Both the position numbers and the translations under genes were made by a program. Of a stretch of 64,000 nucleotides of DNA, positions 5,131 to 63,666 are shown one piece after another (within the stretch, counting starts at the first letter, position 1; the number at the start of each line of letters is the position of its first letter). The notes under the pieces were generated by a model. The model was not told the DNA's origin. It made no database searches and saw nothing but the letters and a program-made list of their open reading frames with translations. Location: positions 105,820 to 169,819 of the forward strand of contig CAVYTG010000001.1 of the NCBI GenBank assembly GCA_963771515.1. Direction: 5' to 3'. The DNA comes from an uncultured Gammaproteobacteria bacterium (lineage in GTDB: Bacteria; Pseudomonadota; Gammaproteobacteria; CAVYTG01).

Positions 5131-5250
5131 CCGTCATTGCGAGCGAAGCGTGGCAATCTAGGTAGGAGTTTGTATCGAAGAATCAAGCTTATGTGACTTT
5201 AATAAGCTTGGGGCTGGATTGCCGCGTCGCTTCGCTCCTCGCAATGACGG
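5131..5250. mobile_element. Family-1 MITE, complete copy (120 bp)
   Basis: TIRs ccgtcattgcgagcgaagcgtggcaatc ... gattgccgcgtcgcttcgctcctcgcaatgacgg flank a central hairpin aagcttatgtgactttaataagctt. Confidence 0.75.
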
Positions 5251-5288
5251 AGGGCTGTTAATTTGCTCAATAACATAGTTGATCCAGA

Positions 5289-5374
5289 TAGGAGTTTGTA
5301 TCAAAGGATCAAGCTTATGTGGCTTTTATAAGCTTAGGCCTGGATTGCCACGTCGCTTCGCTCCTCGCAATGAC
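5289..5374. mobile_element. Family-1 MITE, left-truncated copy, in tandem with 5131..5250
   Basis: Starts inside the element (ataggagtttgtatc...) and ends with ...ggattgccacgtcgcttcgctcctcgcaatgacggg. Confidence 0.65.
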
Positions 5375-5432
5375 GGGAGGGGTAGCTTCATGTGGTGAAT
5401 AATTATCTGTTTTTTTATGATGAGAACCATCA

Positions 5433-5864
5433 ATGGAAGCGAATCTGTCCATGTTAACAAATACCCAATGGAAAGGATTTTCCTTATTGGAACTTTTGGT
5501 TGTGATTGCTATTGTGAGTATATTTTCAGGTTGGGGTATGCGGTTGTATAGCCAACAAATGATGAAGGTCCAACGATATGCTGCTAAAATAGCTTTGCTG
5601 CAACTTGCTCGTCAATTGGAGCATTTTTATCAACATCACCATACCTATGAAGGGGCAAGCTTAGCAAAATTAAATCTGCCTACCAGTATAGAAACAGGAC
5701 ATTATAGAATTCAGTTAACAAGGTTGGGGAAGACTCATTTTTTTATTCAGGCTGTGCCTGTGCGTAATCAAATACGTGATGTAGAATGTGGAGCATTGGG
5801 CTTGGATCAAGCAGGGAGAAGGCATATGACGGGGCAAGGTTTAGTGACACATTGTTGGCAATAA
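5433..5864 (+). CDS. Type IV pilin / pseudopilin-like protein with prepilin cleavage-methylation domain; likely true start at the internal Met (5451)
   Basis: ...QWKGFSLLELLVVIAIVSIFSGW has G followed by FSLLE and a hydrophobic helix, which is the class III signal. Starting at 5451 gives a typical 8-aa leader. Confidence 0.65.
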   Translation: MEANLSMLTNTQWKGFSLLELLVVIAIVSIFSGWGMRLYSQQMMKVQRYAAKIALLQLARQLEHFYQHHHTYEGASLAKLNLPTSIETGHYRIQLTRLGKTHFFIQAVPVRNQIRDVECGALGLDQAGRRHMTGQGLVTHCWQ

Positions 5865-5881
5865 AAAAGAGGGGTTCAAAA

Positions 5882-61448: not shown

Positions 61449-62255
61449 ATGAAAAATTCACAAATTAATCATATACAGGTTGAAAATGTCCAGTTTGGCT
61501 GGCATCAGGATGCGCTGGTTTTGGATACAGTGAACCTTTCAATACCCAGAGGTAAAATCACAGCCATTATGGGGCCTAGCGGTAGTGGAAAAACAACCTT
61601 ATTAAGCATTATGAGCTCTCAGGTTCAGCCTCAATCAGGGAAGGTTTGGATAGATGGGCAAGATATTTATACCTTATCCCGTAAAAAAATTTATGCTTTA
61701 CGTCAGCGGATAGGGATGCTATTTCAGGTCAGTGGTTTATTGACAGATATGACCGTATTTGACAATGTGGCCTTTCCGTTACGGGAACATTCACAATTGC
61801 CTTTAGATATCTTGGAGCCTTTGGTGTTAATGAAATTGGAGGCTGTAGGGTTGAGGGGTGCGAGAGACTTAATGCCGAATCAGTTGTCAGGGGGGATGGC
61901 AAGACGTGTTGCTTTAGCCAGGGCTTTAGTATTGGATCCTGAGCTGATTTTTTATGATGAGCCTTTTACAGGGCTTGATCCCATTACGAAAGGTATTGTA
62001 TTGAAATTGATGAAGGAGTTGAGTCAGATGCTAGGATTAACCTCTGTCTTGGTTTCCCATGATGTAGCAGAAACTTCTGCGATTGCAGATTATGTTTATT
62101 TATTAGGCCGAGGGCAGATCATTGCTCAGGGCACCCCTGAAGTCTTGTTGCAAAGCCAGCAGCCTGAAGTAAAGCAGTTTATGCATGGTTTGCCAGAAGG
62201 TCCAGTTCCTTTTCATTATCCTGGTAAGGTATATGAAGAGGAGTTGCTGGGATGA
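61449..62255 (+). CDS. mlaF: Phospholipid ABC transporter ATP-binding protein
   Basis: GPSGSGKTT, LSGGMARRVALARAL, IFYDEPFTGLDP. 268 aa. 4-nt overlap with mlaE. Confidence 0.85.
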   Translation: MKNSQINHIQVENVQFGWHQDALVLDTVNLSIPRGKITAIMGPSGSGKTTLLSIMSSQVQPQSGKVWIDGQDIYTLSRKKIYALRQRIGMLFQVSGLLTDMTVFDNVAFPLREHSQLPLDILEPLVLMKLEAVGLRGARDLMPNQLSGGMARRVALARALVLDPELIFYDEPFTGLDPITKGIVLKLMKELSQMLGLTSVLVSHDVAETSAIADYVYLLGRGQIIAQGTPEVLLQSQQPEVKQFMHGLPEGPVPFHYPGKVYEEELLG

Positions 62256-63034
62256 TGGCTTTTATTGCGCGTTTAGGTCGTTTTGGTATTGCTGTTTGCT
62301 CTCGTTTAGGGGAGTCTGGTGTGTTTTTATGCCAGGTTTTATTGCGTTACCCTGAACGTTGGAGCAGCATTCGTCTTTGGACGCGTGAGATGTATATGGT
62401 GGGTGTGCTCTCATTGTTGGTAATGATTGTCTCTGGTGCTTTTATTGGCATGGTGTTGAGCTTGCAAGGTCACCATATTTTGGTCAAGTTTTCAGCAGAG
62501 CAGCAGTTGGGGCAACTGATTGCCTTGAGTGTAATTCGGGAACTTGGACCGGTTGTTACCGCTTTATTATTTGCAGGAAGGGCTGGTTCTGCTCTCAGTG
62601 CAGAGTTAGGGTTGATGCGTGCAACGAAGCAAATTGAAAGCATGCAAATGATGGCAGTAGATCCCTTGGCACAAGTCGTTGCACCTCGTTTGTTGGCAGG
62701 ATTGATCAGTTTGCCTTTGTTGACAGTCATTTTTAATGTGGTGGCTATTTATAGTGGTGGTTGGGTTAGTGTGCATTGGTTAGGTGTAGATGGCGGAGCA
62801 TTTTGGTTGAATATGCAAAGTGCAGTGAGCTTTTATCAGGATATTGTAAACTGTCTTATTAAGAGTGTGGTTTTTGGCTTTGTGGTGACCTGGATTTCAG
62901 TTTATCAAGGATTTTATAGTAAGCCGACAGCCGCTGGAATCAGTATTGCGACAACCCATACAGTGGTTTATGCTTCTTTGGCGGTGTTAGGGCTTGATTT
63001 TTTATTGACCGCAATCATGTTAAAAGGGTGGTAA
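62252..63034 (+). CDS. mlaE: Phospholipid ABC transporter permease
   Basis: 260 aa, multi-TM. Position and size match MlaE. Confidence 0.85.
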   Translation: MMAFIARLGRFGIAVCSRLGESGVFLCQVLLRYPERWSSIRLWTREMYMVGVLSLLVMIVSGAFIGMVLSLQGHHILVKFSAEQQLGQLIALSVIRELGPVVTALLFAGRAGSALSAELGLMRATKQIESMQMMAVDPLAQVVAPRLLAGLISLPLLTVIFNVVAIYSGGWVSVHWLGVDGGAFWLNMQSAVSFYQDIVNCLIKSVVFGFVVTWISVYQGFYSKPTAAGISIATTHTVVYASLAVLGLDFLLTAIMLKGW

Positions 63035-63041
63035 ATGCTTT

Positions 63042-63500
63042 ATGAAGTATTTTGAATTTATGGTTGGCCTGTTTATGTTGCTGGGGATTGCTGCGTTGCT
63101 TGTGTTGGCATTGAATGTGAGTGGTTTGAGCCGCTATTCGCCCTCTAGCTACTACACTTTGACAGCAGAATTTGATAACATTGGGGACTTAAAAGTGCGA
63201 GCGCCTGTAAGAATTGCAGGGGTGCATGTAGGGGAGGTGAAAAAGATAGAGTTAGATAAAGACTCTTACCGAGCCAGAGCTTTTCTTGAAATTCAACAGT
63301 CAGAAAATACATTATCAACAGATACAGCTGCCAGCATTTATACGGCTGGACTATTGGGTTCTAATTATGTGAGCTTGACGCCTGGGTATGCGGATACTTA
63401 TTTGAAAGAGGGGGGTAAAATTGAAATAACCCATCCTGCGCTGGTACTAGAGAATTTAATTGGACAGCTATTGTTTAAGCCAAAATCAAAAGATGAGTAA
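63042..63500 (+). CDS. mlaD: MCE-domain periplasmic substrate-binding protein
   Basis: N-terminal TM anchor then MCE domain (YTLTAEFDNIGDLKVRAPVRIAGVHVGEV). 152 aa. Confidence 0.85.
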   Translation: MKYFEFMVGLFMLLGIAALLVLALNVSGLSRYSPSSYYTLTAEFDNIGDLKVRAPVRIAGVHVGEVKKIELDKDSYRARAFLEIQQSENTLSTDTAASIYTAGLLGSNYVSLTPGYADTYLKEGGKIEITHPALVLENLIGQLLFKPKSKDE

Positions 63501-63589
63501 CTGCTCATTCGTGATTGGGTGGCGAAGCATGACAACCCAAACAGGAGCTTGAAGCTGTGAGTCAAAGCCGGATAGCTTTAGAAAAGTTT

Positions 63590-63666
63590 GGCCTGGATTG
63601 CCGCGTCGCTTCGCTCCTCGCAATGACGGGCGTCGCTTCGCTCCTCGCAATGACGGGCGTCGCTTT
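63590..63666. repeat. Family-1 MITE right arm with internal 27-bp tandem duplication, inside an inverted-repeat flank
   Basis: ggcctggattgccgcgtcgcttcgctcctcgcaatgacggg + cgtcgcttcgctcctcgcaatgacggg. Flanks gagcttgaagctgtgagt (63546-63563) and actcacagcttcaagctc (63668-63685) are inverted repeats of each other. Confidence 0.6.

Follow-up and report, generated by a model that had tools for sequence, protein, structure and literature searches.

The subject of this work is a short palindromic element that recurs in a 64-kb stretch of the genome of an uncultured gammaproteobacterium (contig CAVYTG010000001.1; the whole stretch of 64,000 nucleotides is referred to as the window). The window has a G+C content of ~40%; its genes include those of 6S RNA and tRNA-Arg, gyrB, the atp operon, and rpoS, whose product exceeds both NCBIfam cut-offs for RpoS. 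A first-pass annotation of this DNA had listed a palindromic element of ~120 bp, here family 1, at ten places and had described it as a miniature inverted-repeat transposable element (MITE) that is or was actively transposing. We searched for copies with the 23-mer CCGTCATTGCGAGSAGCGAAGCG, allowing up to 3 mismatches and using dinucleotide-preserving shuffles as the control, and further by repeat self-comparison and blastn-short. The 23-mer gave 8 matches in the window and 0 in the shuffles, and the other two methods together detected a copy or fragment at 10 of 10 listed places, which are all intergenic and of which five are dimers (four intact and one decayed). The self-alignment at more than 80% identity that had been proposed as a check thus recovered the copies, the full ones being 83–91% identical, and we note that more than half of the copies are truncated or decayed.

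The ends of the element are hairpin units

As the reference for copy identities, we used the best-preserved copy (27955–28100, plus strand), which was delimited by its sequence and fold and lies between a methyltransferase gene (26909–27757, plus strand) and zapA (28133–28453, minus strand). The annotation had described its two ends as terminal inverted repeats. The ends are indeed inverted, but the arms are unequal (36 versus 30 nt), and each of them is a self-folding hairpin tagged with CGTC. The long-form unit (27970–28005, plus strand; 36 nt, identified by an exact match to the 23-mer, its fold, and the unit grammar described below) consists, in this order, of a CGTC head, ATTGC, GAG-GAG, a GCGAAGC mini-hairpin, CGA-CGC-G, GCAAT, and a CCAG tail. 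The short-form unit (28058–28087) lies on the minus strand, which reads CGTCATTGCGAGCGAAGCGTGGCAATCCAG (30 nt), and both heads point outward. The spacer between them (28006–28057, plus strand; repeat families D2, D8, and D9, fold, and blastn-short) holds a small AAGCTT...AAGCTT hairpin of its own and recurs in conserved form at 5.1, 5.3, and 1.2 kb, is partly conserved at 39.3 kb, and differs at 47.7 and 63.5 kb. Similarity between copies also reaches ~15 nt past each end (TAACTACCCT... and ...GGGGAATAGTTTAC in the reference copy), where the sequence reads GACGG, a purine-rich stretch, and TAGTTAC.

The ~120-bp element is therefore built of a long unit and a short unit whose heads face outward and which are separated by 50–70 nt of spacer. 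The long arm reads CGTCATTGCGAG-GAG-CGAAGCG-ACG-CGGCAATCCAG, and the short arm, on the opposite strand, CGTCATTGCGAG-CGAAGCG-TGGCAATCCAG; the difference is GAG and ACG, both of which bulge from the long arm on folding (two 3-nt bulges). When folded as a single strand, each copy forms one long hairpin of −32 to −46 kcal/mol with z-scores from −4.6 to −11 (for 27955–28100, −42.7/−46.3 kcal/mol, z = −9.3/−11).

The single units follow a common grammar, CGTC-ATTGC-GAG-(variable mini-hairpin)-CGWR-GCAAT-CCAG, which over 621 distinct units from other contigs becomes (C/T)GTC-ATTGC-GAG-(X)-CG(A/T/C)(A/G)-GCAAT-C, with the ATTGC opening, GCAAT closing, and CCAG tail the same as in the window. In the four full copies, every unit, whether long or short, has a CCGTC or TCGTC head, and the decayed copies have CTGTC, TCGTC, or CCATC. 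X is a small hairpin of free sequence, for which 247 short-form units contained 64 distinct inner stems with a mean of 3.64 consecutive Watson-Crick pairs, compared with 0.43 in shuffled sequences. The inner stem is 1–7 bp long, with loops of 3–4 nt that are mostly GAA, GCA, or GTA, and the outer stem consists of five canonical pairs only. Relative to the short form, the long form has one additional GAG...CGA module, and, judged from the sequence, GAG opposite CGA could form two sheared G-A pairs and one G-C pair. Overall, we conclude that the ends of the element are self-folding hairpin units with a co-varying inner stem and not plain transposon ends.

Paired units flank GIY-YIG nuclease genes in metagenomes

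The NTS repeat of Neisseria (CGTCATTCCCGCGMAVGCGGGAATCYRG) is bound and cut by SsnA, a GIY-YIG nuclease of 94 amino acids (Nat Commun 2025; PMC11893778). Homologues of ssn across phyla are bracketed by such hairpins, and NTS-ssnA-NTS has a layout like that of an insertion sequence (PMC11893778). We scanned metagenomes for two outward-facing ATTGCGAG-type heads 340–400 nt apart, a pattern that specified nothing of GIY-YIG, and called GIY-YIG genes by profile hidden Markov model (simple regular expressions missed most of them). The scan returned at least 120 loci. Among the matches listed, 71 of 83 segments made up of two units only (~364–424 bp) encode a GIY-YIG protein, such proteins occur in 75 of 120 loci, and the remaining matches listed are mostly repeat clusters. 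The proteins are single-domain and ~95 amino acids long. Pfam PF01541, and nothing larger, was matched by 21 of 21 unit-flanked proteins tested, and their nearest solved structures are UPF0213 GIY-YIG proteins. In metagenomes, a small single-domain GIY-YIG gene of the PF01541 class is thus framed on either side by units of the window type.

In these cassettes, the start codon follows the 5′ unit at a distance of ~22 nt, the stop codon precedes the 3′ unit by ~5 nt, and the pairing of a long with a short unit is also found around GIY-YIG genes. The cassettes of contigs L270 and L301 are 98.7% identical, with at least 337 nt of unrelated flank on each side, which indicates that the cassette moved or was transferred. 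Further, canonical NTS copies in L237–L240 lie ~41 nt upstream and ~60 nt downstream of GIY-YIG genes, heads outward, and reproduce the published NTS-ssn-NTS layout. One contig, L119, carries both an NTS-type cassette and a ATTGCGAG-type unit, and one protein flanked by window-type units is 43% identical to the NTS-flanked homologue of L119. A scan of viral contigs for a gene between two units gave three repeat clusters only. In terms of layout, the element of the window behaves like the ends of a GIY-YIG cassette without the gene, i.e. like its gene-less counterpart.

Exact-pattern scans located the arm first in 32 viral or proviral contigs and later in over 120; the unit-bearing contigs have a G+C content of 45–72%. 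Units outside the window occur as singles, as inverted pairs with unrelated spacers, and as head-to-tail arrays. By BLAST against plasmids, the same pairs were found in the alphaproteobacterial genera Methylosinus, Methylocystis, and Novosphingobium, with one match in Halomonas; the atp loci of 80 other Gammaproteobacteria, ~1.3 Mb in all, yielded no units. We note that viral contigs L160 (2670–2857), L128 (11382–11520), and L155 (3168–3957) contain head-to-tail arrays of 3–5 units in a single orientation with short C/T-rich spacers, placed between co-directional genes directly upstream of the ribosome-binding site, and that some phage-like contigs have units immediately before a ribosome-binding site. 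The window has no such array.

Several other identities of the unit were considered and rejected. An RNA motif of 5′-untranslated regions was discarded after a crude count of 175 solo units in viral contigs, which showed no strand preference (28 same/same versus 24 opposite/opposite). In a σ70 promoter, the distance between the boxes would not change with the inner hairpin, as it does here; in a kink-turn, the bulge would be on the other side; and the GTTRRRY core of an integron attC site is missing. The unit is conserved across bacterial classes, which the dialects of the DNA uptake sequence are not, and its hairpins are inverted and not direct, unlike those of an IS200/IS605-type element.

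One site in the ATP synthase operon is empty in related genomes

Syntenic contigs of three relatives (L115, L116, and L117) were reached via the AtpA protein cluster (90% identity grouping). The atpG-atpD spacer measures 238 nt in the window versus 73, 73, and 64 nt in L115, L116, and L117, respectively, and the difference is the element. The orthologous site is thus empty in three of three related genomes, and the element has therefore been gained or lost; divergence of the intergenic DNA in the relatives limits the exact insertion ends to a precision of a few bases. In the relatives, the rpoS-hpf and gyrB-atpI spacers are shorter as well and do not contain the repeat. The palindrome that follows rpoS is missing from L115, no copy was found within 17 kb in L115 or 11 kb in L116, and L117 has copies elsewhere, downstream of atpC. 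Further, contigs L113 and L114, which come from a short-read assembly of the same organism (run ERR11718636), end inside the atpG-atpD copy, indicating that the repeat family fragments short-read assemblies of this genome.

AtpG of the window is at most 63% identical to that of any species representative found in a scan of a genome collection, and the proteins of the 2,004,778-bp contig from which the window comes have no close relatives in a clustered protein collection; for the RpoS protein, no existing record was found. The gene content (a mitochondrial-carrier protein, an indoleamine dioxygenase, an ankyrin-WD40 protein, and a nonribosomal peptide synthetase (NRPS) in a low-G+C stretch) suggests an intracellular, Legionellales-like bacterium.

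The remaining copies in the window

A second full copy (5132–5249, minus strand; 23-mer and blastn-short) has its short unit at 5132–5161 and its long unit at 5214–5249, is 91% identical to 27955–28089 over 135 nt (5130–5264), and sits between two divergent genes, one at 4025–4927 (minus strand) and a type IV pilin gene at 5433–5864 (plus strand). It is followed 30 nt downstream by a truncated copy (5282–5375, minus strand; 23-mer, family D2, and blastn-short) that has kept the spacer and the long unit (5340–5375) and lost the short unit, and that is 93% identical to the 27.9-kb copy over 81 nt (5296–5376). The pilin gene, which adjoins both copies, encodes a type IV minor pilin with a ComP_DUS domain match (E = 4e-15). 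By analogy with Neisseria, where NTS acts on transforming DNA, it is conceivable that this adjacency is linked to competence, but it may be coincidence.

The copy at 1.2 kb (1207–1268, minus strand; 23-mer and inverted pairs I3, I7, and I8) is a half copy comprising the long unit (1233–1268) and part of the spacer, 95% identical to the 27.9-kb copy over 66 nt (1207–1272). It had been listed as one more occurrence of the element and is indeed present, but it lies in a ~270-nt inverted segmental duplication (1207–1482 versus 27765–28037, 93–97% identical) that brackets 26 kb and includes half of a family-1 copy together with ~200 nt of unique flank. The copy at 1207–1269 is thus not an independent insertion but arose with the duplication. 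We also observed a short direct match, TTTTCGAATTCTTCAGA, at 1457 and 28107. The duplication may be the footprint of an inversion.

Two further full copies lie on the plus strand. One (39250–39395; 23-mer, fold, and blastn-short, with 83% identity to the 27.9-kb copy over 131 nt at 39276–39406) has its long unit at 39278–39313 and its short unit at 39366–39395 and ends 30 nt from tRNA-Arg(CCG) (39425–39501, minus strand). The other (47717–47859; 23-mer, blastn-short, and the empty site of the relatives) is the copy between atpG and atpD within the ATP synthase operon, with its long unit at 47745–47780 and its short unit at 47830–47859; its two ends (47745–47779 and 47830–47862) are 97% identical to those of the 27.9-kb copy, and only the middle, i.e. 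the spacer, differs. Both copies are preceded by the extra head repeat that the annotation had noted (39250–39277 and 47717–47744), which we identify as a decayed 27-nt tandem duplication of the start of the long unit, partial at 39250. The duplication is perfect at 63603–63665 (2.3 copies, 100%), in a copy after mlaD (63510–63665, minus strand; 23-mer and blastn-short, with a match at 63590–63656). This last copy had been listed at 63590–63666; it is full length but decayed, with a degenerate short unit at 63510–63542 and the long unit at 63593–63628, and its long-unit array is enclosed by another 18-nt inverted repeat (63544–63561/63668–63685).

Three places hold less than a full copy. The perfect palindrome at 55485–55519 (fold −21.1 kcal/mol, z = −7.6; also recovered by blastn-short), which starts 13 nt past the rpoS stop codon and has no strand, had been described as two abutted ends; it is a palindrome of two head halves only (GTCATTGCGAGCGAAGC and its complement), i.e. 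the first 17 nt of the unit, mirrored. A decayed single short hairpin (CGTCATTGCGAGCAAAGCGCAGCGATGACAGG; 7172–7203, plus strand; repeat family D16 and a blastn-short match at 7172–7190) lies between a ubiH-like gene (5786–7051) and an open reading frame (ORF) at 7231–7767. A decayed solo short unit (42081–42108; minus strand, reading CCATCATTGCGAGCAAAATGCGGCAATT; repeat family D13), of which 42082–42110 was recovered by repeat self-comparison and not by blastn-short, lies in a gyrB-atpI spacer that is ~360 nt longer than those of the relatives.

Target duplications, transposases, and gene ends

The annotation had proposed target-site duplications and a cognate transposase with matching ends as further checks. 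No target-site duplication was seen at any full copy (5132–5249, 27970–28087, 39278–39395, and 47745–47859, with ends uncertain by a few bases), nor at unit dimers in viral contigs. No transposase, RAYT (REP-associated tyrosine transposase, where REP stands for repetitive extragenic palindrome), or Y1_Tnp domain was among the Pfam results for the window, and no transposase or RAYT was found in the contigs of the relatives. No cognate transposase thus accompanies the element in the window, and the gene between such ends in metagenomes is the GIY-YIG nuclease. Rfam had no family covering the copies at gathering score, and a permissive Rfam scan of 27900–28160 gave chance miRNA and snoRNA matches only. 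Searches of the literature by the DNA sequence of the element and by its translated peptides retrieved nothing relevant.

We note that several copies begin 10–14 nt past a stop codon (atpG, rpoS, and mlaD), and the annotation had proposed that the element supplies hairpins at gene ends. The hairpins are there, and strong hairpins in transcripts, e.g. that of the atp operon, are likely, but between 47 and 64 kb none of the copies has a T-run behind it or received a terminator-like score. Further, the atpG-atpD copy lies upstream of atpD and atpC and so must be read through. Transcription termination by the copies is not supported.

Other repeats and genes in the window

A second palindromic family of ~165 nt, with ends TAGGGTGTGT...ACACACCCTA and arms of 47–51 nt, occurs at 13765–13931, 49828–49964, and 51417–51580, with fragments at 36705–36729, 56690–56728, and 63684–63707. 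A glmU-permease spacer of 183 nt, compared with 64 nt in L115 and L116, makes the second-family copy at 51.4 kb look like an insertion as well. A third family of ~130 nt, with AAGGGGGAGAATCGCGATTCTCCCCCTT and CAGCAATTCC...GGAATTGCT hairpins, occurs at 7835–7965, 34051–34181, and 11965–12067, and a related hairpin stands beside the rpoS palindrome (55594–55626). Lastly, a perfect 35-nt hairpin, CCTAAATTCAGT...ACTGAATTTAGG, has three copies (28946–28980, 37928–37962, and 38960–38994).

The segment at ~12000–27760 has a low G+C content (34–37% versus 40–44% elsewhere) and encodes a MatE transporter, a mitochondrial-carrier-family protein, a major facilitator superfamily (MFS) transporter, an indoleamine 2,3-dioxygenase, an AurF-like oxygenase, an NRPS of 2354 amino acids with a methyltransferase domain, and a separate methyltransferase. 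The segment resembles an acquired island, with eukaryote-like genes of a kind typical for intracellular bacteria. The ORF at 7231–7767 encodes a repeat protein rich in glycine, histidine, and tryptophan (GGRGWHGGRGFRGGHGWH..., ~8 copies with a period of 18 nt) without a Pfam match. A protein of 630 amino acids (59395–61287) has ankyrin repeats followed by a WD40 propeller, whose units are recent internal duplications with a period of 126–129 nt.

Discussion

The element is MITE-like in form and REP/NTS-type in kind. We consider it probable that it is an inverted pair of CGTC-tagged REP-type units and the gene-less counterpart of a unit-nuclease-unit cassette. A bolder proposal, which we advance only tentatively, is that such pairs are non-autonomous members of a class of mobile elements that spreads with a ~95-amino acid GIY-YIG nuclease for single-stranded DNA (ssDNA) instead of a transposase, the ATTGCGAG-type unit being its widespread, so far uncatalogued recognition hairpin. 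In the first, probable interpretation, each unit folds on its own into an outer stem of 5 bp (ATTGC/GCAAT), a single GAG/CGA module or two of them, and a free inner stem closed by a GNA-type loop, leaving the CGTC head and the CCAG tail unpaired. The gene-less pair would relate to the cassette as a MITE does to an insertion sequence, or as a REPIN (a mobile pair of inverted REPs) does to a RAYT. SsnA acts on NTS only as ssDNA, on one strand and upstream of the head (PMC11893778); by analogy with SsnA and the NTS hairpin CGTCATTCCCGCG..GCGGGAATCYRG, each unit, when present as ssDNA, would be bound by a cognate Ssn-type nuclease acting on one strand and cutting a few bases upstream of the CGTC head. 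The gene of this nuclease would lie elsewhere in the 2.0-Mb genome or may have been lost, and nuclease-dependent breaks followed by repair or copying would allow the pairs to spread and erode. A likely side effect is Ssn-dependent trimming of incoming ssDNA, as reported in Neisseria. The work on Neisseria and the gene association lead us to infer the binding and cutting of the unit by a GIY-YIG partner and the way in which copies are made; the presence of the nuclease gene in this genome is likewise an inference.

Several observations weigh against these interpretations. The published search pattern for Ssn-related motifs (SRMs), HGTCWYN(0-2)YYVSBRHN(0-5)WNVSBRGN(0-2)RNCYNB, has 0 matches in the window, and the long, short, and alphaproteobacterial forms of the unit all fail it, whereas canonical NTS passes. 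The fixed spacing used in the metagenome scan favors genes for ~95 amino acids, although the pattern did not specify GIY-YIG. No GIY-YIG match was found in the window (E ≤ 10), in L113–L117, or in the 80 gammaproteobacterial loci, and a partner nuclease in the genome itself is therefore only putative. At least one copy, that at 1.2 kb, spread by segmental duplication and not by insertion. Finally, SsnA cuts one strand upstream of the head and the heads of a pair face outward, so each strand would be cut at one end only, and a simple single-strand excision like that of IS200/IS605 elements does not follow. The earlier view that the element is actively transposing is not supported, given the 83–91% identity of the full copies, the truncation or decay of more than half of all copies, and the segmental duplication.

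How else might the copies have arisen? A classical MITE would be a deletion derivative of an insertion sequence with a DDE transposase, moved by cut-and-paste by an enzyme that recognizes terminal inverted repeats of ~36 bp. The first-pass annotation had read the element as a MITE, and the small size, the inverted ends, the lack of coding capacity, the many copies (truncated ones included), and the empty site in relatives agree with a classical one. We nevertheless regard it as very unlikely, in view of the missing target-site duplications at the four full copies and at dimers in other contigs, the lack of a transposase in the window, and the nature of the ends, which are REP-like hairpin units, independent of one another and found singly and in tandem arrays as well, unlike a transposase end; further, in 71 of 83 cases among the matches listed, such ends enclose a GIY-YIG gene. 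A REPIN in the strict sense, i.e. two REPs mobilized by a RAYT (an HUH tyrosine transposase of the IS200 kind) whose gene is present once elsewhere in the genome, would account for the larger hairpin formed by two inverted units, for singlets as remnants, for the intergenic location, and for the lack of target duplications, and the layout agrees with published REPIN descriptions. That the element is such a REPIN seems equally improbable to us: its head is CGTC and not the GTAG of RAYT-associated REPs, Di Nocera et al. found CGTC repeats around no tyrosine-transposase gene (PMC3733652), the window's Pfam results contain no Y1_Tnp domain, and the flanked gene of the metagenome scan is GIY-YIG.

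A different kind of alternative concerns what the copies do now. They may no longer move and may be kept mainly for a host function, either the stabilization or punctuation of transcripts or, as with NTS in Neisseria, the tagging of DNA so that incoming single strands undergo Ssn-type trimming. The hairpins are very stable, several stand 10–14 nt after the stop codons of atpG, rpoS, and mlaD, and many copies are diverged and decayed; moreover, type IV pilins are encoded, one pilin gene stands beside two copies, and NTS and SsnA together lower transformation in Neisseria (PMC11893778). Other copies, however, lie between divergent genes and beside a tRNA gene, none between 47 and 64 kb is followed by a T-run, the relatives manage without the atpG-atpD and rpoS copies, and the crude test in viral contigs found no strand preference of solo units with respect to neighboring genes. 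We therefore view a host function as possible but rather doubtful. It would also leave the origin of the copies unexplained and thus complements, and does not replace, the interpretation as a gene-less counterpart of the GIY-YIG cassette.

CGTC-tagged REPs were described in 2013 without a dedicated enzyme, and their Neisseria member NTS was tied to SsnA in 2025 (PMC3733652, PMC11893778). What is new here is a second, structurally different type of hairpin that has the head and tail of NTS, is missed by the published pattern, and brackets GIY-YIG genes in many environments, together with a gene-less pair of such units inserted in an essential operon, at a site that is empty in relatives, of a gammaproteobacterium that has a small genome (2.0 Mb) and is probably intracellular. 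This widens the partnership between Ssn proteins and repeats, with the long and short units as concrete substrates and the atp copy as a concrete insertion event. If the proposed class of GIY-YIG elements is real, the genome would be a natural system for studying how CGTC-tagged REPs are copied, a question open since 2013. Genome annotation also gains an explanation for spurious small ORFs (with peptides such as RHCEERSDEAIQ and LLRFARNDG) and for assembly breaks, of which the repeat is a very common source.

Comparison with known systems

Classical MITEs such as the Correia elements and QMITE1 and QMITE2 of Coxiella burnetii (PMC5896051) resemble the window element in their size of 100–200 bp, their terminal inverted repeats and stable RNA and DNA hairpins, and their insertion into operons and at gene 3′ ends. 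However, these MITEs have target-site duplications (2–11 nt in the QMITEs; PMC5896051), of which none was seen at the window copies, and QMITE2 contains a GTAG REP, whereas the ends of the window element are autonomous CGTC hairpin units. The autonomous partner of a MITE would have the same ends and encode a transposase; a gene-carrying element with the same ends exists, and its gene encodes a GIY-YIG nuclease, which is not a known transposase. The window element also resembles the REPIN-RAYT system and the bacterial interspersed mosaic elements (BIMEs) of E. coli: two inverted REP hairpins form the mobile unit, singlets are its remnants, and target duplication is missing. The paired units of BIMEs are also unequal in length (Y and Z REPs), and in the REPIN-RAYT system, as in the GIY-YIG cassettes, a single small nuclease-type gene is bracketed by repeats. 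A GTAG head and an HUH tyrosine transposase partner there, versus a CGTC head and GIY-YIG here, set the window element outside that system.

CGTC-tagged REPs, as defined by Di Nocera, De Gregorio & Rocco (2013, BMC Genomics 14:522; PMC3733652), are repeats with an unpaired CGTC (or TGTC/CCTC) head, a stem starting with A-T, and a CCA tail, present in many intergenic copies and as inverted dimers, often of unequal partners, with spacers of 20–100 nt. They are found mostly in Alphaproteobacteria and also in Coxiella, Neisseria (dRS3), and Rickettsia, and they “apparently lack a dedicated transposase” (PMC3733652). The units of the window share with this description the head, the A-T start of the stem, a CCA-type tail, the intergenic inverted dimer, and the lack of a transposase. 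They differ from it in the stem, since the four published families (CGTC-1 to CGTC-4) have perfect stems of 8–9 bp and loops of 4–5 nt (PMC3733652), whereas the window unit has a 5-bp outer stem, GAG/CGA modules, and a free inner stem. By these text descriptions the window unit stands apart from CGTC-1 to CGTC-4, with an overlap with CGTC-2 or CGTC-4 possible, and the intragenic CGTC-1 and CGTC-3 peptides described there belong to other sequence types.

NTS differs from the window unit in its stem (ATTGCGAG... in the window type versus ATTCCCGC in NTS), and the window type has long and short forms. The head CGTCATT and the tail AATCCAG are identical in the two, and both have a hairpin in the middle. 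NTS is present in hundreds of gene-less copies between genes, and such repeats are enriched in host-associated bacteria. Further, both types of unit, the window type in metagenomes, flank a single-domain GIY-YIG gene of ~94 amino acids with their heads outward.

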